This document shows, one piece after another, positions 1 through 13,821 of a stretch of DNA of 30,107 bases. Made by a program: the position numbers and the translations under genes. The notes below the pieces were generated by a model. That model was not told where the DNA came from. It was given only the letters and a program-made list of their open reading frames with translations, and ran no database searches. Numbering within the stretch: the stretch's first letter is position 1; each line of letters starts with the position of its first letter. Source of the DNA: a virus (Duplodnaviria; Heunggongvirae; Uroviricota; Caudoviricetes); the IMG/VR virus record IMGVR_UViG_2698536535_000005, positions 1 to 30,107 of that record. One strand, 5' to 3'.

Positions 1-1254
1 ATGCTGGAACAAATGGGCATTGCCGCGAAGCAAGCCTCGTATAAATTAGCGCAACTCTCCAGCCGCGAAAAAAATCGCGTACTGGAAAAAATAGCCGATG
101 AACTGGAAGCACAAAGCGAAATCATCCTCAACGCTAACGCGCAGGATGTTGCTGACGCGCGTGCCAACGGCCTTAGCGAAGCGATGCTTGACCGTCTGGC
201 ACTGACGCCCGCACGGCTGAAAGGCATTGCCGACGATGTGCGCCAGGTGTGTAACCTCGCCGATCCGGTGGGGCAGGTAATCGATGGCGGCGTACTGGAC
301 AGCGGCCTGCGTCTTGAGCGTCGTCGCGTACCGCTGGGGGTTATTGGCGTGATTTATGAAGCGCGCCCGAACGTGACGGTTGATGTCGCTTCGCTGTGCC
401 TGAAAACCGGTAATGCGGTGATCCTGCGCGGTGGCAAAGAAACGTGTCGCACTAACGCTGCAACGGTGGCGGTGATTCAGGACGCCCTGAAATCCTGCGG
501 CTTACCGGCGGGTGCCGTGCAGGCGATTGATAATCCTGACCGTGCGCTGGTCAGTGAAATGCTGCGTATGGATAAATACATCGACATGCTGATCCCGCGT
601 GGTGGCGCTGGTTTGCATAAACTGTGCCGTGAACAGTCGACAATCCCGGTGATCACAGGTGGTATAGGCGTATGCCATATTTACGTTGATGAAAGTGTAG
701 AGATCGCTGAAGCATTAAAAGTGATCGTCAACGCGAAAACTCAGCGTCCGAGCACATGTAATACGGTTGAAACGTTGCTGGTGAATAAAAACATCGCCGA
801 TAGCTTCCTGCCCGCATTAAGCAAACAAATGGCGGAAAGCGGCGTGACATTACACGCAGATGCAGCTGCACTGGCGCAGTTGCAGGCAGGCCCTGCGAAG
901 GTGGTTGCTGTTAAAGCCGAAGAGTATGACGATGAGTTTCTGTCATTAGATTTGAACGTCAAAATCGTCAGCGATCTTGACGATGCCATCGCCCATATTC
1001 GTGAACACGGCACACAACACTCCGATGCGATCCTGACCCGCGATATGCGCAACGCCCAGCGTTTTGTTAACGAAGTGGATTCGTCCGCTGTTTACGTTAA
1101 CGCCTCTACGCGTTTTACCGACGGCGGCCAGTTTGGTCTGGGTGCGGAAGTGGCGGTAAGCACACAAAAACTCCACGCGCGTGGCCCAATGGGGCTGGAA
1201 GCACTGACCACTTACAAGTGGATCGGCATTGGTGATTACACCATTCGTGCGTAA
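1..1254 (+). CDS. proA: gamma-glutamyl phosphate reductase (glutamate-5-semialdehyde dehydrogenase)
   Basis: Complete 417-aa ORF whose sequence I recognise as enterobacterial ProA; followed by thrW as in E. coli-type chromosomes; GC content by eye higher than downstream accessory DNA. Confidence 0.93.
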
Positions 1255-1368
1255 ATAAAACCGGGTGATGCAAAAGTAGCCATTTGATTCACAAGGCCAT
1301 TGACGCATCGCCCGGTTAGTTTTAACCTTGTCCACCGTGATTCACGTTCGTGAACATGTCCTTTCAGG

Positions 1369-1444
1369 GCCGATATAGCTCAGTTGGTAGAGCAGCGCAT
1401 TCGTAATGCGAAGGTCGTAGGTTCGACTCCTATTATCGGCACCA
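1369..1444 (+). tRNA. thrW: tRNA-Thr (anticodon CGU)
   Basis: 76-nt sequence GCCGATATAGCTCAGTTGGTAGAGCAGCGCATTCGTAATGCGAAGGTCGTAGGTTCGACTCCTATTATCGGCACCA; acceptor stem GCCGATA/TATCGGC pairs, anticodon loop TTCGTAA gives CGT, encoded CCA end. Confidence 0.93.
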
Positions 1445-1610
1445 TTCTAACGTCTCCCCAAGTCTACTCAAGTATTTAAAAACTTCTTATAATCCGCATG
1501 TTATCGCCCCTTTTAGTCTTTTGACGTCTACTTAAGTACCCCAAAATCTACAGTCAATTGGGGGGACTTTTGGGGGTATTTGCTGTTCGGTTTAGTGGAG
1601 GTACCCCCAA

Positions 1611-2825
1611 GTGAAACTCAATGCCCGTCAAATAGACACTGCCAAGCCAAAAGAGAAGGCTTACAAGCTGGCTGATGGTGGTGGTCTGTATCTCCTGGTA
1701 AAACCTAGTGGAGGAAAATACTGGCGCTTTAAATATCGTGTAGCTGGTAAAGAGAAGCTGTTAGCACTAGGTGTGTATCCTGAAGTTACCTTGGCTGATG
1801 CTCGTGCAAAACGTGAAGAAGCTAAAAGGGGTATCGCTGGGGGTATCGATCCGATGGAAGCGAAACGAGAGGAAAAGATTGCCCGGGAAACGCAGTTAAA
1901 CAATACCTTCAAAGATATTGCCCTTGAGTGGCACAGCAGCAAATTAAAAAAATGGTCTGCTGGTTATGCTTCAGATATCCTCGAAGCCTTCAACAAAGAT
2001 GTGTTCCCTTACATTGGCAAAAAACCAATCGCCGAAATCAAACCACTTGAACTTCTGAATGTGCTGCGACGCATCGAGGGGCGCGGTGCTACAGAAAAAG
2101 CCAAAAAAGTGAGGCAGCGGTGCGGGGAAGTTTTCCGCTATGCAATAGTCACTGGTCGCGCAGAGTATAACCCTGCCCCAGATCTTACTAGCGCGATGCA
2201 AGGCCATGAATCTAATCATTATCCTTTCCTCACAGCCAAAGAATTGCCTGATTTTTTCAAGGCATTGTCCAGTTACTCAGGAAGTGCATTGGTTGTTATG
2301 GCGGCTCGTCTACTGATTATCACTGGTTTGCGAACTGGCGAACTGCGCGGTGCATTATGGGATGAAATCGATCTCAACAAGGCTATCTGGGAGATACCTG
2401 CTTCACGGATGAAAATGCGTCGCCCTCATGTGGTGCCTTTGTCTAAGCAGGCTCTTTCTCTTATTGGGCAGATTAAAGAATTAACTGGTAATTATCCGCT
2501 TATGTTTCCCGGCCGTAATGATCCAAGGAAAACAATGAGCGAGGCTAGCATAAACCAAGTATTTAAACGCATCGGCTATAACGGAAAGGTTACTGGTCAT
2601 GGATTCCGGCACACCATGAGCACGATTTTACATGAGCAGGGCTATAACACCGCGTGGATAGAAACGCAGCTTGCACACGTTGATAAGAACTCAATTCGTG
2701 GCACGTACAATCATGCGCAATATCTGGACGGGCGGCGCGAGATGCTCCAGTGGTACGCCGACTATATGGATTCGCTCGAACATGGCGGTAACGTGGTGCA
2801 TGGCAAGTTCGGAAAATGTGGATGA
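1611..2825 (+). CDS. int: tyrosine recombinase, P4-type integrase (N-terminal arm-binding domain plus catalytic domain)
   Basis: 404-aa ORF, GTG start; N-terminus MKLNARQIDTAKPKEKAYKLADGGGLYLLVKPSGGKYWRFKYR is the typical P4-integrase N-terminal domain; C-terminal HGFRHT and trailing tyrosine region; lies directly next to the tRNA. Confidence 0.9.
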   Translation: MKLNARQIDTAKPKEKAYKLADGGGLYLLVKPSGGKYWRFKYRVAGKEKLLALGVYPEVTLADARAKREEAKRGIAGGIDPMEAKREEKIARETQLNNTFKDIALEWHSSKLKKWSAGYASDILEAFNKDVFPYIGKKPIAEIKPLELLNVLRRIEGRGATEKAKKVRQRCGEVFRYAIVTGRAEYNPAPDLTSAMQGHESNHYPFLTAKELPDFFKALSSYSGSALVVMAARLLIITGLRTGELRGALWDEIDLNKAIWEIPASRMKMRRPHVVPLSKQALSLIGQIKELTGNYPLMFPGRNDPRKTMSEASINQVFKRIGYNGKVTGHGFRHTMSTILHEQGYNTAWIETQLAHVDKNSIRGTYNHAQYLDGRREMLQWYADYMDSLEHGGNVVHGKFGKCG

Positions 2826-2953
2826 CTGGTTGCGTATACAGTAGTAGACTTTGAGCGACGAAAGAAAAGGCTGTGTCTAGGGTCGCTCCCGAAAATCCGT
2901 ACACCTCGACGGACTGGTACAGCCACTACAGTAGAGGACGCTGAGGTGTGCGT

Positions 2954-3751
2954 ATGATTGATATTCATGCCGAATTAAACGAATACAAAAAAGATTTTAT
3001 TTCTTTACGTGAATTTCTTGAGGTCGTGCTTAAGGTCGCTGGTGATGATTATGATGTTTCAGATGTCATAACTTGGATACTCAGGAGAATAAGCGGAGAA
3101 CATATCCGCCTGTACACAGTAAATGAATTTAAGCTGTTGGAATCTTTTTGTAACCCGTATCGGGATGAATTTGATTATGATGTTCTTTATAGAAATCTGA
3201 ATGCGGTTCGGAAACGTGGTTGTTTACCTGGTGAGAGGGATGAAAATGGTTTTCTGGTGTCCGGTTATTGGGAAGATCCCGAATTTGAGAACATTGGATT
3301 TATAAGGGGTGAAATTTTCGCAATTTTTCCCGATGTCCTTGACGCGTTAACGAAGCTGGAAGGCGCTAACTCTTCTGAAAATGACGAGGCACAAGGACGC
3401 GATATTGAAAAGAAAGAGTTGCGTACAGAGGATGATTTATTATCCCAAATCGCAATGCTGGAAAAAGAAAACGCAGAGTTAAGGGCAAGGATAGAGCAGT
3501 TAGAGCAAGAGCGCCCGATACACTTATATAAATACTGGGATAAAGACCCATTAGCTAAGGCTATTGAGATTAGAAACAGAGAGTGGGCCAATTACGATCC
3601 AGAAAATGATTTTGCCACTAGGGGAAATCAAGAAGCGATAACCAGGGAGCTTAAGCAGTGGGGGGCAAGTAATGCACTTGCAACGCTCATAGAGAGGACT
3701 GCCTGCCCTATTAACCGAGACAACAGCCAAAAGAACGCAAAGCCGGATTAA
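2954..3751 (+). CDS. hypothetical protein with central coiled coil (integrase-proximal cargo gene)
   Basis: ORF with GAGG Shine-Dalgarno 7 nt upstream of the ATG at 2954 (track ORF begins at GTG 2948); AT-rich; predicted coiled coil LSQIAMLEKENAELRARIEQLEQER; no recognisable catalytic motif. Confidence 0.6.
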   Translation: MIDIHAELNEYKKDFISLREFLEVVLKVAGDDYDVSDVITWILRRISGEHIRLYTVNEFKLLESFCNPYRDEFDYDVLYRNLNAVRKRGCLPGERDENGFLVSGYWEDPEFENIGFIRGEIFAIFPDVLDALTKLEGANSSENDEAQGRDIEKKELRTEDDLLSQIAMLEKENAELRARIEQLEQERPIHLYKYWDKDPLAKAIEIRNREWANYDPENDFATRGNQEAITRELKQWGASNALATLIERTACPINRDNSQKNAKPD

Positions 3752-3766
3752 CGCACCATACCGCAT

Positions 3767-3807
3767 ACCCTGAGGGTGATTTACTGTTACCCTGAGGGTA
3801 TTTTTTT
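3767..3807 (+). terminator. putative intrinsic terminator formed by two ACCCTGAGGGT boxes followed by a T7 run
   Basis: Boxes at 3767..3777 and 3789..3799 can pair as an 11-bp stem with one central mismatch and an 11-nt loop, followed by TTTTTTT (3801..3807); sits 16 nt after the stop of the 2954..3751 gene. Confidence 0.45.
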
Positions 3808-3909
3808 ATCTTCCCCGTCAATTTTACCATCACCCTTAGGGTAGATTTCCTCCCGATTACCATCACCCTTAGGGTTAATTTCCTTCCGGTAACCATTAGG
3901 CCTGAGGGT
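3767..3909. promoter_or_regulatory. array of five palindromic ACCCTnAGGGT boxes between the integrase-proximal gene and alpA
   Basis: Boxes at 3767, 3789, 3832, 3865 and 3899; spacings 22, 43, 33 and 34 bp are close to multiples of the helical repeat. Confidence 0.5.
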
Positions 3910-3978
3910 ATGAAAATATTCGTTATTTCTGTGCCAGGATTACCTCGTCAAATTGAGTAGACGTTATGAGGTAAATAT

Positions 3979-4176
3979 ATGTCAAATACGCTTATTCGTT
4001 TAACAGAAGTTCAGCGTAGAACTGGATATAGCAAGGCATGGATTTATCGCCTTATGGGGCAAGGTAAATTTCCTGCATCAGTTAAAATTGGCTCGCGAGC
4101 TATTGCTTTCGTTGAGAGTGAAATTGACGAGTGGATTAATCAGCGTATTGCGGAATCACGCGGAACAGCTACCTGA
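3979..4176 (+). CDS. alpA: AlpA-family prophage regulatory protein (excisionase-like HTH regulator)
   Basis: 65-aa protein LIRLTEVQRRTGYSKAWIYRLMGQGKFPASVKIGSRAIAFVESEIDEWINQR, the characteristic AlpA sequence pattern; GAGG Shine-Dalgarno upstream. Confidence 0.85.
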   Translation: MSNTLIRLTEVQRRTGYSKAWIYRLMGQGKFPASVKIGSRAIAFVESEIDEWINQRIAESRGTAT

Positions 4177-4253
4177 TTAAATGGCTACGGGGCTATTTCC
4201 CCCAGCTATCCACCAGCAAATAAAAGTAACTTAATTCGATAGCAGGAGTTTTT

Positions 4254-5054
4254 ATGAAATTTCCAAAAACGCCCGTACAGGGGCGGGGCTTCGTTCGGCC
4301 TGAAAACCAGAATCTGCAAAATTTCGGCGAAATTATCCCGATTATTTCCGGCGTTATTGGCGGGAGTGAAACCACTATTGTTAGCGCCAGAGCGTTACAT
4401 AAGGCGTTAGGTGTAGGGCGCGTTTTCCGTTCGTGGATCAAGGGGCGCATTGAAGAATACGGGTTCACGGAAGGCGTGGATTATGAGGTTGTTGAATATT
4501 TGAGCCGACCCGATCCGGTGAGCGCAAAATCTCGCCAGCAAACCGCTCTTGAGTACATCATCACAGTGAACATGGCGAAAGAACTGGCGATGGTCGAACG
4601 TACCGAACAGGGCCGCGCCGTTCGCCAGTACTTTATCAAATGCGAGGAGGAGCTACACAAGGTTGCGCCTGTTCGTTCCGCAGCGTTACGCCGGGAACTG
4701 AAAGCCCGTATCACAGTTGCCAGCTACTTTAAGCCAATGTGTGCCGCGCTGGAGGCGTACCGGGCTGAACTGGGTAAAAACACACTCCAGCACCACTACA
4801 CCACGGAAGCGAACATGCTGGCGCGTATCGTACTGGGTGGCATGACTGCAAAACAGTGGGCACTGGCGAACGGCATTACAGGCGAACCACGCGACCACAT
4901 GAGCACGTTGCAGCTTGAGCACCTTTCTTACCTTGAGCAGAGCAATATCACGCTGATTGAGTTAGGCCAGGACTACCACCAGCGGAAGGCTGAATTAATT
5001 CGTCTTTCGCAGCGTTGGTTAGCCCGTCGCATGGAGGAAAACAGCCATGTGTAA
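4254..5054 (+). CDS. phage antirepressor-like protein (AntA/AntB-type N-terminal domain, KilAC-like C-terminal region)
   Basis: 266-aa ORF with AGGAG Shine-Dalgarno; N-terminal segment TIVSARALHKALGVGRVFRSWIKGRIEEYGFTEGVDYEV resembles the AntA/AntB antirepressor domain; assignment by eye only. Confidence 0.5.
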   Translation: MKFPKTPVQGRGFVRPENQNLQNFGEIIPIISGVIGGSETTIVSARALHKALGVGRVFRSWIKGRIEEYGFTEGVDYEVVEYLSRPDPVSAKSRQQTALEYIITVNMAKELAMVERTEQGRAVRQYFIKCEEELHKVAPVRSAALRRELKARITVASYFKPMCAALEAYRAELGKNTLQHHYTTEANMLARIVLGGMTAKQWALANGITGEPRDHMSTLQLEHLSYLEQSNITLIELGQDYHQRKAELIRLSQRWLARRMEENSHV

Positions 5055-5771
5055 CGCTCTGACCGTTACAAAAAGAGAAAGCGCCCCGTTGCCGGAGCGC
5101 CTTTGTGAACGAATAGCCTACTGCGCCATATTGCTTACTGTCTACGAGGCAGATTATAGCGTTGTGGTCGCACAGAGTGAAGGCGCTGATCACCGTTACT
5201 ACAGCACGCCAGAAATGCAGAATATTTTGCTGCAAAATGTCGTTGGTCACACTGTCCGGAAAGCAAAAAATTTTGCTGGTGGCGCGACTGATGCGATTTT
5301 GTCAGGTCGCCAGGTGCTGATCAATCTGATGTCTGATTTCGTTCTGGATAAAACAAAGGCGACCGCAGAGGGCCGCCAGTGGGAAAGCTACATACTTGAA
5401 CGCATCGCCAACAATGCCAGATTTGCGGCTGGTGGGCAATGTGTCAGCTTTGCACCAATGACTCTATGTTTAACTGAGGGTCATTATGGTGAATATGCTG
5501 GCTTGCTGGTGGGCTATTCCTGCTCTTTAACATTGCCATGCCGCGATGTTTTCCAGGTATGCGACCCCATTTTTGTGCGCCTGTACTCTTTAAGGAATTT
5601 CTCAAGGATAAACGCACAGGGCGCGAATCTGTTTGACTCATGCTCGTACGCTATCTTTCTGCGCTGTCTTTTCCGTGCCGGTGATGGTGTATTGGTTGAT
5701 TCTTTGTTGGTCATGGCGCAGCCCTGTAAAACGATGCACCGTAGTTCCTCACACCACGGCGCTGGTGATGG

Positions 5772-5951
5772 TTACTCCTGTTCTTTGGCCTTGCGGCGCT
5801 GGCGGTATTCAACTTCTCGCTTTAATGCTGCTGTTACAAACTGCCCTGTACTTTCACCAGGCATTTTTACCGCCTCAACATTGTTCATAACTTCATGCGG
5901 AACCCTTGCCGCAACTGTTTGTGATTTTGCGTTTACTGCTTTTGTCGCCAT
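5772..5951 (-). CDS. ribbon-helix-helix (Arc/MetJ/CopG-like) DNA-binding protein, putative repressor
   Basis: 59-aa minus-strand ORF (below the ORF-track cutoff) MATKAVNAKSQTVAARVPHEVMNNVEAVKMPGESTGQFVTAALKREVEYRQRRKAKEQE; beta-strand/helix/G-x-S/T loop/helix pattern typical of RHH proteins; AAGGGG Shine-Dalgarno 8 nt upstream; palindromic boxes in its promoter region. Confidence 0.5.
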   Translation of the reverse strand: MATKAVNAKSQTVAARVPHEVMNNVEAVKMPGESTGQFVTAALKREVEYRQRRKAKEQE

Positions 5952-5999
5952 GTTGTGTACCCCTTACAAAAAACAAATGCAGTATGCAGGAAAAAAAAT

Positions 6000-6051
6000 A
6001 AGTGTTCAACACTTGACGTGTTTAACACCTAGGCTTAAATTGGTGTTCAAC
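6000..6051. promoter_or_regulatory. three palindromic GTGTTCAACAC-type operator boxes in a divergent promoter region
   Basis: GTGTTCAACAC at 6000..6010, GTGTTTAACAC at 6016..6026, GTGTTCAACAC at 6041..6051; each is a GTGTT/AACAC inverted repeat; located between the minus-strand RHH gene and the rightward early operon. Confidence 0.45.
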
Positions 6052-6150
6052 ACCTTGTTGATGCAAGGTGCAGAAACGACAACGCCCCGCAGTGGTGGCA
6101 CACATGCAGGGCGTCTAACCACCAACGATAGCAAGAGTATCGAGGTAGCT

Positions 6151-6354
6151 ATGAGAAATCATACCACACACCCGCAAGGGCGGGACTCGCACAACCTGAA
6201 TAAATACATCTGGCGTTTTATCGCCCTGAGCACGGCACAACCGCGCGTAATTCACATCGAGGCCACCAGCGAACAGGAAGCACGCCAGCAATCTCCTGAT
6301 GGCTGCGTGATGGTATTCGCAGCCCGTATTCGCCAGGAGGTGGAACATGTGTAA
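6151..6354 (+). CDS. small hypothetical protein (likely first gene of the rightward early operon)
   Basis: Internal ATG of the 435-aa track ORF, preceded by GAGGT Shine-Dalgarno; ends in the EVEHV-stop coupling motif shared with neighbouring genes. Confidence 0.35.
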   Translation: MRNHTTHPQGRDSHNLNKYIWRFIALSTAQPRVIHIEATSEQEARQQSPDGCVMVFAARIRQEVEHV

Positions 6355-6571
6355 TGCAACATGGCCTGATGCAGCGGTAGACGCTATCAAAACGCTGATG
6401 GATTCACTTATTGAGATTTCTGCTATCGCTGGTGTGGCGCATAAACACGCAGCCAGAGAATCAGAATGCATCTCCCATTATTTAGCATTTGTGCAGCTAA
6501 AAGCCGATCAGGCACTGGATAAGGCCGGAAAAATTATCATGGCTGATGTGCAGGAGGTGCACCATGCATAA
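6347..6571 (+). CDS. small hypothetical protein, early operon
   Basis: AGGAGG Shine-Dalgarno; start overlaps the upstream stop in the CATGTGTAA coupling motif. Confidence 0.5.
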   Translation: MCNATWPDAAVDAIKTLMDSLIEISAIAGVAHKHAARESECISHYLAFVQLKADQALDKAGKIIMADVQEVHHA

Positions 6572-6929
6572 CCTGTCAATTTCTGACCTTAACAGCATTC
6601 AGTTTGACGAGAAATTTACCGGGCAGTTGCTGGTCAATGTGGAGAACGGGCGCATAGTGCGTAATTACCACCTGCCGGATGGTGCAATTGCCGGAAGCGT
6701 TGAAGCATTGCTGGAACTGGCGGAACGTGCGCGACTGATTAAGCCGTCAACGAGCCATCACGATGATGATCTGCATTTTACCGGGCGTATGGTGAGTCAC
6801 TACGAAAACGGCGTTGAAGTATCCCGCGAACGGCTGCGTGATGATTGCTGTTTCGGCACACTGCCGGAATTTATCGAGTTGCTGACCAGTTGCGGTTATC
6901 AGGTCATTCAGGGGGGTAAACATGCGTGA
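6564..6929 (+). CDS. hypothetical protein, early operon
   Basis: Start moved to the ATG preceded by CAGGAGGTG (track ORF begins at 6546); overlaps neighbours by start/stop coupling. Confidence 0.5.
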   Translation: MHNLSISDLNSIQFDEKFTGQLLVNVENGRIVRNYHLPDGAIAGSVEALLELAERARLIKPSTSHHDDDLHFTGRMVSHYENGVEVSRERLRDDCCFGTLPEFIELLTSCGYQVIQGGKHA

Positions 6930-7155
6930 TGATCGTTTTAATTCCCTGAAACGGGAATTTGATGGCGCACCGGAAGATGCAGCGGGCGCATTGTTGAGCG
7001 TTGCTGACATGATGAAAGCTGCATATTTTCTTATCAATACCAGTGGCTACAAGTCAGAGGGTGAAATGATTCTTAGTATTGCGTCGGACTATGCGGAATA
7101 TGTGGCAGAGACGCGTTACAGAAGAAAATTCACGGAGGATGTAAGCCATGCATAA
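6922..7155 (+). CDS. small hypothetical protein, early operon
   Basis: GGGGGG Shine-Dalgarno; overlapping stop/start with both neighbours. Confidence 0.45.
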   Translation: MRDDRFNSLKREFDGAPEDAAGALLSVADMMKAAYFLINTSGYKSEGEMILSIASDYAEYVAETRYRRKFTEDVSHA

Positions 7156-7348
7156 TCATGAAGCGCATGTACCCGTAGTGCTTAATGTGCCAGATGATTT
7201 CACCGGACGCGTACTGGTTTACCTGGATAAAGGGAAAGTGAAATCACAATGCCGACTGAAAAGTAATGAGATTGTTGGTTCTCCTGAATTTTTTTCTGAA
7301 CTTTGTATTCGTGCGGAAATAAAACCGGAACTGCTGACAGGAAAATAA
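7148..7348 (+). CDS. small hypothetical protein, early operon
   Basis: GGAGGA Shine-Dalgarno; overlapping start/stop with the previous gene. Confidence 0.45.
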   Translation: MHNHEAHVPVVLNVPDDFTGRVLVYLDKGKVKSQCRLKSNEIVGSPEFFSELCIRAEIKPELLTGK

Positions 7349-7352
7349 AACC

Positions 7353-7643
7353 ATGAAAAAGAAAAATTCTGGCTTTACTGCCAGCGGCCTCTCTCGGCCT
7401 GAAATCCGCCCCGGTGATATTTCCCGGGACACCAGACGCGGGGGACGGGTGGTTATTCGTCACGTTACGCCAGGCAATATCACCTACCGCCGTGAGGCTT
7501 ACGAATATGACTGCGTAATGCCGCGCCGTCAGTTTGATCGTGATTTTATTCTGGTGGAAAACAAACAACAGGCAGTGGCGAGACGTGCAGCCACGAATAT
7601 TAAAAAAATCCGGGCAATGTTGGTTGCGGGAGGTAAGAAGTGA
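7353..7643 (+). CDS. hypothetical basic protein, early operon
   Basis: 96-aa ORF beginning 5 nt after the previous stop; its stop overlaps the GTG start of the primase gene. Confidence 0.5.
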   Translation: MKKKNSGFTASGLSRPEIRPGDISRDTRRGGRVVIRHVTPGNITYRREAYEYDCVMPRRQFDRDFILVENKQQAVARRAATNIKKIRAMLVAGGKK

Positions 7644-9445
7644 AAAACGCACCGAGTCTAAAATATCAGCCGAAGGATAAATTCACTGAGGTAATCATTT
7701 TTGCCGGGACGGATGCTTACGCCCATGCTCAACACTGGATTGAAAGTGAAGGACGAAAACACGGCGATAACGTGCCTCCTGTTTACCTGGGGCCAAAGCA
7801 ACTGGCAGACCTGGCGAATATCCGCATTATTGACGAGAAACGCCGTTTTGCGCGTGTCTATATCGCGGGGGAGATAGAGCCAATCCAGATCAATACTATC
7901 GCTGAAAAGCTGGCGCTGGCTGGCGTACAGGAGGCGAAATTATACAAAGGTATCACCGACCAGGAACCGGAGAACTGGCGCGACTACCTGCAACGGATCC
8001 GCGAACAGGCTGAGCACGGGGAAGTTTCAGTGATGAAATTAGCTACAAAAAATAGTGGTCTACCCAAGCCTGCATTAAATCAGATGGGAGCCAGCCAGAG
8101 AGGGGAAGTGTTACTTGAACATTATGGAGGAGCACTGGCGATAAATGATGATTCTGATGTAGTTCACCATTACAACGGAATTGTTTGGGAGCCTGTATCT
8201 GATAAGGAACTCCAGCGGTCTATGGCGAAGATTTTTATTGATGCCGAAATTAGTTATTCGCAAAACGCCATTAAATTTGCCGTAGAGACAATGAAATTGA
8301 GTCTACCTGTTATGGGGGGAGCGGACAGAAATCTTATTGGGTTCAGTAACGGTGTTTTTGATATCAGGACAGGAAATTTTCGGGAACACAACAAAAATGA
8401 CTGGTTGTTAAATGCCAGTGAATTACCGTTCAGCCCGCCAGAAGAGGGGGAAACGCTGGCAACACATGCGCCGAATTTCTGGAAGTGGTTGCGTCGTTCG
8501 GTGGCGGATAATGCTCGTAAAGCGGATCGCGTACTGGCGGCATTATTCATGGTACTGGCGAACCGGTACGACTGGCAGTTATTCCTTGAGGTAACGGGGC
8601 CGGGCGGAAGCGGTAAAAGTGTGATGGCGGAGATTTGTACCATGCTGGCGGGTAAGGCCAACACAGTATCGGCAAGCATGAAGGCTCTGGAAGACGCAAG
8701 GGAACGCGCGTTAGTAGTTGGCTTTTCGCTGATTATCATGCCGGATATGACTCGCTACGCTGGCGATGGTGCAGGAATTAAGGCAATTACTGGCGGCGAC
8801 AAGGTGGCAATTGATCCGAAACATAAAGCCCCCTACTCCACACGTATTCCGGCAGTAGTGCTTGCGGTAAACAATAACGCCATGTCATTCAGTGACCGAA
8901 GCGGGGGGATCTCGCGTCGTAGGGTGATATTTAATTTCTCTGAGGTCGTACCGGAGAACGAACGCGATCCCATGCTGGCGGAAAAGATAGAAGGCGAACT
9001 GGCGGTAGTGATTCGCCATTTGCTAACACGATTTACCGACCAGGACGAAGCTAAAAGACTACTTTATGAGCAGCAAAAATCAGAAGAAGCGCTGTTGATA
9101 AAGCGCGAAGGTGATTCACTGGTGGACTTTTGCGGCTATCTGATGTCGTTGGTTAAATGTGAAGGAATGATGGTGGGCAATGCGGAAATAGTGCCATTTA
9201 GCCCGAGGCGATACCTGTATCATGCTTATTTAGCCTATATGTCAGCGCATGGCCTGGGAAAACCAGTATCACTGACACGCTTTGGTACTGATATGCCAGG
9301 AGCTATGGCGGAATACGGAAAGGAGTATAAGCGGGCTAAATGCACTAAAGGCCCGGATAAAGGGCGAGTGATAACAAATGTTCTGTTAGATGATGATGCT
9401 GATGGCTGGTTGCCAGCAGCTACAGGGATTAACGACAGAACATAA
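7640..9445 (+). CDS. P4-family phage/plasmid primase-helicase (C-terminal P-loop NTPase domain)
   Basis: 601-aa ORF, GTG start after GGGAGG; Walker A VTGPGGSGKS and downstream Walker-B-like hydrophobic-DM stretch; overall resemblance to P4 alpha C-terminal / pri-rep proteins of satellites; iteron array immediately downstream. Confidence 0.75.
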   Translation: MKNAPSLKYQPKDKFTEVIIFAGTDAYAHAQHWIESEGRKHGDNVPPVYLGPKQLADLANIRIIDEKRRFARVYIAGEIEPIQINTIAEKLALAGVQEAKLYKGITDQEPENWRDYLQRIREQAEHGEVSVMKLATKNSGLPKPALNQMGASQRGEVLLEHYGGALAINDDSDVVHHYNGIVWEPVSDKELQRSMAKIFIDAEISYSQNAIKFAVETMKLSLPVMGGADRNLIGFSNGVFDIRTGNFREHNKNDWLLNASELPFSPPEEGETLATHAPNFWKWLRRSVADNARKADRVLAALFMVLANRYDWQLFLEVTGPGGSGKSVMAEICTMLAGKANTVSASMKALEDARERALVVGFSLIIMPDMTRYAGDGAGIKAITGGDKVAIDPKHKAPYSTRIPAVVLAVNNNAMSFSDRSGGISRRRVIFNFSEVVPENERDPMLAEKIEGELAVVIRHLLTRFTDQDEAKRLLYEQQKSEEALLIKREGDSLVDFCGYLMSLVKCEGMMVGNAEIVPFSPRRYLYHAYLAYMSAHGLGKPVSLTRFGTDMPGAMAEYGKEYKRAKCTKGPDKGRVITNVLLDDDADGWLPAATGINDRT

Positions 9446-9472: not shown

Positions 9473-9811
9473 GGTAGACGGTTGGTAGACAGATTCACTT
9501 AACCCTCTACCAACCATCTACCAATTAATATTTTGAATTATAAAGATATTTTCAATGTGGTAGAGAGGTAGACAGTTATTTCTATATTCCTAAACCACGG
9601 GGGGTATATAAAAAACAGATAGTTAAGGGGGTATTTTTTAAATTTCTCTTTTAACTGTCTACACTGTCTACCATTTAGTAAAAATCATTAATTATCAATG
9701 TATTAATGCGGTAGACCGTTGGTAGACAGTTTGCAGATTGTTTTTTTGTTATGTGTTAATAACATTAAATAAATCAATCAATTATATCGGTAGACAGTTG
9801 GTAGACAGTTG
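9473..9811. repeat. iteron array, putative replication origin of the element
   Basis: At least ten copies of GGTAGAC(AGTT) in both orientations (e.g. 9473, 9484, 9567, 9708, 9721, 9788, 9800; inverted at 9504, 9515, 9655, 9664) interspersed with AT-rich stretches, directly 3' of the primase gene. Confidence 0.7.
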
Positions 9812-13608: not shown

Positions 13609-13615
13609 CGGCCGC

Positions 13616-13821
13616 AAAAAGTGTCAAGTTGAGCAGCTTGCCAGGTTGGCACTTTACACTCTGAACACGAAAAAGTGTCAACCTCGCTGTAAACCCTGCC
13701 ATTACTGGCCTTGAGCCATATTTACCACGCCAGAAACCCGTGAAAACCGCGAAAAGTGTCAAGTTGTCATGCTTAGAAATGCCAGGGTTTTTCGCGAAAA
13801 AGTGTCAAGTGTGTCAACCTG
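13616..13821. repeat. array of AAAAGTGTCAA boxes (putative protein-binding sites)
   Basis: Five GTGTCAA cores at 13621, 13675, 13756, 13803 and 13811, most preceded by an A-run, between the HTH gene and the next small ORF. Confidence 0.6.

Follow-up and report, generated by a model that had tools for sequence, protein, structure and literature searches.

The window, that is the whole stretch of 30,107 nucleotides analyzed here, carries an E. coli phage-inducible chromosomal island (PICI) inserted at tRNA-Thr. It starts with proA and the tRNA-Thr(CGT) gene, and the island continues with int, ORF267, a group of palindromic boxes, alpA and the primase gene (Table 1). On the 3' side of alpA we find genes for an AntA-domain protein, the small protein YlcI/YnfO, an Icd-like gene, DUF4222, the primase, ProQ/FinO and PerC. 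This gene order matches that of the Gram-negative PICIs described previously (PMC6092414, PMC10111431, PMC11773190), and the island occupies the same proA/thrW site as the published EcCIMP1. [quoted passage not shown]

Table 1. Positions in the window of the boxes, the neighbouring signals and selected island genes
Feature	Position	Strand	Details
tRNA-Thr(CGT)	1369-1444		at the start of the window, with proA
int	1611-2825		tyrosine integrase; before ORF267
ORF267	2954-3751	+	RefSeq start 2954; 265 aa hypothetical protein WP_000565286
Intrinsic terminator of the int-ORF267 transcript (by fold)	3765-3807	+	hairpin 3765-3801 (box 1 pairs with box 2), T7 3801-3807
Box 1	3767-3777	.	exact ACCCTGAGGGT; sequence read and pattern search
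Box 2	3789-3799	.	exact ACCCTGAGGGT; sequence read and pattern search
33-bp tandem repeat	3824-3896	.	2.2 copies, cores are boxes 3 and 4; TRF, repeat family D1
Box 3	3832-3842	.	exact ACCCTTAGGGT; degenerate half-site ACCAT just before
Box 4	3865-3875	.	exact ACCCTTAGGGT
Box 5 (imperfect, promoter-proximal)	3899-3909	.	within site 3892-3909, ACCATTAGGCCTGAGGGT; box GGCCTGAGGGT, 2 mismatches
Candidate weak alpA promoter	3910-3940	+	-35 ATGAAA 3910-3915, 19-bp spacer, TG 3932-3933, -10 CAGGAT 3935-3940
alpA leader element	3942-3972	+	inverted repeat ACCTCGT ... ATGAGGT over the Shine-Dalgarno sequence; conserved
alpA	3979-4176	+	65 aa, Phage_AlpA/HTH_17 (Pfam Phage_AlpA, E 2.4e-19)
YlcI/YnfO	5772-5951	opposite	small RHH protein
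Primase	7640-9445		stop at 9445

The exact palindrome ACCCTNAGGGT is present in four copies, against 0.00 expected from 100 dinucleotide-preserving shuffles of the 30-kb window, and a pattern search of the whole window found no further exact copy outside positions 3767-3875. Nine ACCCT/AGGGT half-sites lie within 200 bp at the array, which is their sole cluster in the window. The preliminary description of this DNA had listed five such palindromic boxes upstream of alpA, with centre-to-centre spacings of 22, 43, 33 and 34 bp. The coordinates agree with these spacings, the Pfam match confirms the start of alpA at 3979, and the five boxes stand as four exact copies and one with two mismatches. 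The array is thus real and, as shown below, conserved, and it has the look of a functional element. The 33-bp tandem repeat around boxes 3 and 4 had been absent from that description. Across E. coli strains its unit is present once (L003, L006, L048), twice (the window) or three times (L002, L036), and in two further loci (L051, L023) boxes 1 and 2 are fused into one by a 22-bp deletion, with loss of the hairpin that these two boxes form. The copy-number variants and the fused-box variant are natural alleles for effects of dose and phase.

The preliminary description had suggested a search for the motif in related elements, which we carried out and which showed that the boxes are conserved among the relatives in sequence and in position. 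Of 5426 complete E. coli genomes, 164 (about 3%) contain the 601-bp region, and this subclass of islands is present in further Enterobacterales. Islands inserted at tRNA-Gly have an integrase 66% identical to that of the window, a diverged upstream ORF and different DNA between the boxes, and they keep identical boxes at spacings of 22, 44 and 34 bp. When 2.9 million viral contigs were scanned for pairs of boxes at a distance of 9-35 bp, 47 loci were obtained, 35 of which are islands of the window's type. In 11 of these 35 the AlpA protein is 74-85% and the ORF267 homologue 34-43% identical to that of the window. Their spacers can be aligned only at two to five exact boxes, at the right half TGAGGGTATGA of the imperfect box and at a block before the alpA start, so that dyad sites of the form ACCCT-N-AGGGT are kept in spacers which are otherwise unalignable. 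Among the pentamers of 16 representative spacers, ACCCT/AGGGT ranks far ahead of all others (115 occurrences in 3616 positions, about 7 expected).

The arrangement of the boxes is conserved as well. In the family the box centres lie at about -75 (the imperfect box), -108, -151, -174 and -205 from the alpA ATG and in the window at -75, -109, -142, -185 and -207; the distances in the window differ because it has one extra 33-bp unit. Of 32 spacings between adjacent boxes in 16 diverged loci, 31 fall into the ranges 21-23, 32-34, 42-44 or 54-55 bp. Tested against a period of 10.8 bp, the spacings have a mean resultant of 0.85 and a mean phase of about zero, and this resultant was reached by none of 20,000 random spacing sets (the 16 loci are related and their spacings not independent, so that this figure is no true probability). 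Since the spacings hold in spite of divergence and of small indels between the spacers, we conclude that the phase is maintained. The helical phasing in multiples of about 11 bp, which had been noted from this single sequence, is therefore a property of the whole family. At the diverged loci the central base of the box can be any of the four, and T5 and A7 are invariant. A single box is not able to pair fully, and together these features are better explained by a symmetric protein dimer on the duplex than by a hairpin. The earlier proposal of sites for a dimeric regulator on one face of the helix is accordingly upheld for the layout of the sites, namely their dyad symmetry, the free central base, the period of 10.8 bp and the fixed distance to alpA, and their occupation by such a dimer stays a prediction made from the sequence.

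Boxes 1 and 2 have in addition the properties of an intrinsic terminator. The hairpin formed by the two boxes starts 14 nt past the ORF267 stop codon, has a predicted energy of -23.9 kcal/mol (z -5.58, reached by 0 of 200 shuffles) and is followed by U7, so that a stable stem–loop with a U-tract lies on the same strand 3' of the gene. An inverted repeat (I4) and matches of a terminator-like scan also support the terminator. The suggestion that the first two boxes and T7 terminate the upstream gene thus agrees with the fold. Eight of 16 lineages retain a pair of boxes 21-23 bp apart that is capable of pairing into a hairpin (-18 to -28 kcal/mol), and only the E. coli-type lineages L036, L016 and L027 have a U-rich tail (at least five T in nine positions). 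We therefore regard the pair of sites as the conserved feature and the terminator as a lineage-specific second use of it.

From these observations one could also argue that the boxes act mainly as RNA, i.e., that hairpins in the 3' UTR of ORF267 or in a read-through leader serve as terminator, attenuator or stabilizer and that DNA binding is irrelevant. The strong hairpin of boxes 1 and 2 with its U-tract, its retention as a hairpin-capable pair in half of the lineages and the folding of the whole spacer, which is better than that of shuffled sequences (z -3.1), are in line with such a role. Against it, T5 and A7 are invariant even though a single box with its loop of 1 nt cannot form all five pairs, the central bases of paired boxes are often non-complementary, and the U-tract is missing from most lineages. 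Moreover, spacing by helical turns and a fixed distance to the promoter are properties of DNA, and no Rfam family was matched (the sole hit, RAGATH-25, reached 16 bits and is below its gathering score of 49). We consider a role at the RNA level quite unlikely.

Downstream of the array a position weight matrix scan of the 16 diverged spacers gave the same candidate promoter in 12 of them, with a -35 element at 64-69 bp and an extended -10 element TG-N-(C/A)A(T/G)NAT at 39-44 bp from the alpA ATG. With a stricter consensus scan no sigma-70 promoter was detected between 3500 and 4300. If the candidate is used, transcription of alpA would start near 3947. The imperfect site 3892-3909 abuts the candidate -35 element and is centred near -43 from this putative start, and boxes 4, 3, 2 and 1 would lie near -77, -110, -153 and -175. 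The array has thus the fixed position and the helical phasing of an operator array, next to a promoter which is itself only predicted. Between the candidate promoter and alpA there is a further conserved element in the leader, (A/T)CTCGTAAACCGCAATAGACGTTACGAGG, reading ACCTCGTCAAATTGAGTAGACGTTATGAGG in the window and containing a 7-bp inverted repeat. It is found in islands with and without boxes, and RNAalifold detected no covariation that would indicate an RNA structure at 3942-3972. This leader element may be a site for AlpA itself or may control translation.

Several proteins encoded by the island have been suggested as binders of the boxes. In EcCICFT073 and EcCIMP1 the alpA promoter is activated by AlpA itself (PMC6092414, PMC11773190), and the boxes are upstream of alpA; they could accordingly be autoregulatory or excisionase sites of AlpA. 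The boxes do not follow the AlpA lineage, however. Loci with zero or one half-site in the upstream 300 bp encode AlpA proteins which share 95-97% identity with those of loci that have boxes (L068 compared with L071, L083 with L086), whereas among the latter the identity between AlpA proteins can be as low as 60-69%. Both PICIs with demonstrated autoactivation lack ORF267 as well as the boxes, and the leader element, which is present in all alpA leaders, is a better candidate for an AlpA site. We therefore judge it very improbable that the boxes are bound by AlpA, as had been proposed. The AlpA antiterminator of Pseudomonas was considered as a model and set aside; this protein is unrelated and of larger size, its site GGGACG is located within the promoter (PMC9371919), and the two have only the name in common.

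Being repeated and phased, and located in an integrative element beside int and a Xis-like gene, the boxes could also be taken for integrase/excisionase arm-type sites, as the preliminary description had it, or for replication iterons. Arm sites of integrases are usually directional repeats, whereas the boxes are palindromic. The distance of the boxes from the attachment core in tRNA-Thr is about 2.3 kb and not a few hundred base pairs, and they do not vary together with the integrase, as the identical boxes next to the 66% identical integrases at tRNA-Gly show. The arm-site proposal was thus not borne out, and the integrase is disfavored as binder. Nor are the boxes beside or downstream of the primase gene, being located 3.7 kb upstream of it. 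The iteron-like repeats of the island, GGTAGACAGTT, are found instead just past the primase gene at 9694-9810; there, 250 bp past the primase stop, are two 38-nt repeats each containing GGTAGAC(C/A)GTT twice, which are likely the replication origin of the island. This is also where PICI origins have been found (PMC6092414). The arm-site and iteron readings appear scarcely credible to us. The third protein that had been named, the RHH protein YlcI/YnfO, was dropped as a candidate, its presence and identity being uncorrelated with the boxes; the presence of the AntA gene is likewise uncorrelated with them.

The gene that does go along with the boxes is ORF267. We assembled 80 loci, one genome per species across the Enterobacterales, whose AlpA is 68-87% identical to that of the window. 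A homologue of the C-terminal domain of ORF267 is encoded immediately upstream at all four loci with at least two exact boxes in the 450 bp 5' of alpA, and likewise at every other locus of the set that has a box within the 300 bp preceding alpA. Among the nine loci with the homologue, four have at least two exact boxes, three have a single exact or one-mismatch box and two (L097 and L100) have none; L097 contains five ACCCT/AGGGT half-sites and L100 one. Exact boxes are found in none of the 71 loci of the set that lack the homologue, one of which (L067) has a single match with one mismatch at -351.

The association extends to distant relatives. An exhaustive HMMER search with the C-terminal domain gave only 49 cluster representatives among 1.84 billion proteins, and in every full-length match the domain is at the extreme C-terminus after a coiled coil, preceded by differing N-terminal parts. 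Seven distant members could be placed on contigs (C-terminal domain 39-62% identical). In six of the seven the gene is followed by a spacer of about 150-240 bp and a gene of the Phage_AlpA type; L150 has an integrase gene called upstream, and the seventh contig (L149) shows int and the ORF267-like gene before it ends. ACCCT/AGGGT half-sites are present downstream of the gene in six of the seven; at L139 and L141 they are rearranged as AGGGTGAYAG-N10-CTATCACCCT, and L142 has other repeats instead, TCCCCGATATT twice. A prophage-like contig (L047, IMGVR_UViG_2919046199_000002) contains at 5476-6350 an ORF267-family gene for a protein of 258 aa ending in VACPINRGR, with four boxes directly 3' of it. 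There the next gene encodes a convergent XRE-type regulator, and no alpA adjoins the boxes, so that the module of gene and boxes occurs also outside the int–alpA context. Together with the distant members this locus indicates that the boxes travel with the ORF267 gene family.

ORF267 consists of a variable N-terminal part, a leucine-zipper-like coiled coil (about residues 160-190) and the conserved C-terminal domain, which ends in VACPI(N/K)R. Searches of Pfam, NCBIfam and PADLOC found no family for it and PHROG no informative one, two AlphaFold models and three fold searches yielded nothing significant, and neither a helix-turn-helix nor another known DNA-binding fold was recognizable. Sequence profiles of PDB entries matched only bZIP and bHLH-zip coiled coils, at residues of about 160-190. 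The protein is probably a coiled-coil dimer, and its co-occurrence with the boxes, the coiled coil and the dyad symmetry of the sites suggest that it is probably also the protein which binds them. DUF6387, which takes the same slot in other islands, was rejected as kin of the C-terminal domain (hhalign probability 0.1).

The absence of a recognizable DNA-binding domain in ORF267 also leaves room for another binder, for instance a factor of the host, conserved in Enterobacterales, or a DNA-binding protein of the helper phage whose operators are copied by the island, with ORF267 merely linked or co-acting. Induction of alpA by helper phages is established (PMC6092414), and the palindrome itself is not confined to these islands. 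An unrelated viral contig of 127 kb (L058) has 21 copies of it in promoter-like units TGTCAA-N10-12-ACCCTSAGGGTA, and in several unrelated viral contigs it forms iterons; proteins recognizing the palindrome thus exist elsewhere. On the other hand, the boxes are absent from all the alpA loci without ORF267 even though these come from the same host genera, the scan of the viral contigs gave PICIs and unrelated contigs and not a single lambdoid or P22-like enterobacterial phage, and a BLAST comparison of L058 with 50,697 deposited phages gave no match. We hold another binder to be unlikely; should ORF267 not be the binder, the array would still be a conserved and phased operator for another protein.

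As to the contigs themselves, the copies in L058 (IMGVR_UViG_3300037313_000197, positions 1-8100) are of the form ACCCT(C/G/A)AGGGT and lie within 8 kb, most of them with TGTCAA 10-12 bp upstream. They resemble repeated promoter/operator units of an unknown large phage, and no ORF267-like domain was detected at this locus. Seven further unrelated contigs of very different G+C content (L015, L020, L043, L045, L052, L054, L055) contain tandem repeats with periods of 21-34 bp whose core is this 11-bp palindrome, which may reflect either convergence on a common recognition sequence or chance.

The explanation that we prefer, and that has in our estimate somewhat better than an even chance of being right, is that the boxes form an operator array for the adjacent ORF267 which controls the alpA promoter, boxes 1 and 2 doubling as a terminator. 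Each ACCCT-N-AGGGT dyad would take one ORF267 dimer. As the sites are whole helical turns apart (two, three, four or five), the dimers would share one face of the DNA and could bind cooperatively. The last site of the array is weak and half-conserved; it abuts the -35 element of the predicted weak alpA promoter, about 43 bp before the putative start, and occupancy of the array would for this reason set whether alpA is transcribed. Many activators have this layout of strong distal sites and a weak site beside the -35 element of a poor promoter, for example cI at PRM and AraC at I2. Of the two possible signs of control, we slightly prefer activation by way of the weak -35-proximal site to repression by occlusion. 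The variable N-terminal part of ORF267 would then be the likely input domain, possibly for a signal of the helper phage, and in this E. coli lineage the RNA hairpin of boxes 1 and 2 would insulate alpA from int–ORF267 transcription.

A phased operator array beside a regulator gene is of a familiar kind. For the box sequence we found no prior description; a literature search for the box sequences returned only unrelated eukaryotic or viral primer or sequence matches. The array resembles the lambda cI/OR arrays and class II activator sites (cI at PRM, AraC at I1-I2) in having several dyad sites for a dimer at whole-turn spacing, strong distal sites together with a weak one by the -35 element of a weak promoter, and the regulator gene adjacent. 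It differs from cI/OR in its 5-bp half-sites, which are 1 bp apart and form a dyad of 11 bp, in its spacings of 22-55 bp and in the presumed binder, which from its sequence has no recognizable helix-turn-helix or known DNA-binding fold. Operators of the MqsA type are compact 11-bp palindromes, ACCT-N3-AGGT. The boxes share with these the length, the outer ACC...GGT and the presence of more than one copy in the promoter region; the inner bases are not the same and the proteins belong to unrelated families, so that the likeness is one of site architecture only. As for Stl, the master repressor of the SaPIs in Gram-positive bacteria, the gene of ORF267 is located beside int, the protein would control the promoter which starts the island cycle, and the sequence is highly variable between islands, as expected for a part recognizing different helper-phage proteins. 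Unlike Stl, to which it has no relation in sequence or fold, it is co-oriented with alpA and not divergent from it.

The closest known elements, EcCICFT073 and EcCIMP1, are of the same type, with the order int, alpA, Icd-like gene, DUF4222, primase and PerC, and EcCIMP1 shares the thrW site. In contrast to the island described here they have neither ORF267 nor the boxes; EcCIMP1_002, located between int and alpA in EcCIMP1, is a small different protein and was excluded as an ORF267 homologue. Spacers of the EcCIMP1 type have nut-like boxA/boxB units instead of boxes. In E. coli MP1 (L145; EcCIMP1, NZ_CP139039) and in E. coli ABW_A19 (L010, positions 3120-3270) these units form a tandem array in the int–alpA spacer without ORF267. 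They comprise a lambda-like boxB GCCCTGGAGAAGGGC, a second hairpin with a GAAAA loop and a boxB, GCGCTGACAAAGCGC, identical to the annotated nutL boxB of mEp234, HK106, 933W and H-19B. Each unit is flanked by boxA-like sequences, CGCTCTTTTA or TGTTCTTTAA(C/A)A, and a hairpin-plus-T terminator comes after them. This arrangement suggests that antitermination by the N protein of the helper may switch on alpA in EcCIMP1-type islands; our literature search found no paper linking boxB with PICIs. The boxes of the window are no nut sites by the criterion of a boxA CGCTCTT(T)A and a 5-bp stem with a GNRA-like pentaloop, for there is no boxA in 3752-3978 and the box loops would be 1-3 nt with no pentaloop.

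The alpA upstream regions of yet other loci, which lack both ORF267 and nut-like units, make up a third class; they contain (A)CTTCCA(C/T) three times in direct orientation, about 21-23 bp apart, and then TTTTGCTGAAATAT. To this class belong L060, L065, L066, L085, L086, L095, L096 and L105, where the repeats are about 130 bp before alpA (at about 3870-4000), and L007 (3343-3512). These repeats are probably another interchangeable control cassette in the int–alpA interval. The int–alpA spacer of EcCICFT073 (L153, E. coli CFT073, positions 8161-8525), which of all E. coli PICIs has been studied best, contains short repeats of the GAACAAC type and a stretch CACTCTTAAAAA resembling lambda boxA.

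With respect to the island cycle, a broader interpretation can be put forward tentatively, and we would rather bet against it than for it. ORF267 would represent an undescribed family of regulators with the C-terminal VACPI(N/K)R domain, would sense the helper phage of one subclass of Gram-negative PICIs by its N-terminal part and would switch on alpA by occupancy of the array. It would thereby be the counterpart of Stl and one of at least three interchangeable sensing cassettes of the int–alpA interval, the others being the nut-site arrays and the CTTCCA direct repeats. For one PICI subclass the array provides a concrete cis-element and ORF267 a candidate trans-factor. The different spacers suggest that the int–alpA interval is a swappable sensing cassette, which, if true, would help to explain helper specificity and could guide the engineering of PICI-based delivery vehicles.

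Two other groups of repeats were observed in the window. Between 20085 and 20223 there are five tandem repeats of 23-25 bp, CACCCTAACAGAAAACTGTTACCC, each with the palindromic core AACAGAAnnCTGTTA and with no long ORFs around; they are another iteron- or operator-like array. A 20-nt repeat, CCGC(A/G)AAAAGTGTCAAGTTG, is present in two copies at 13612-13631 and 13747-13766, 135 bp apart.
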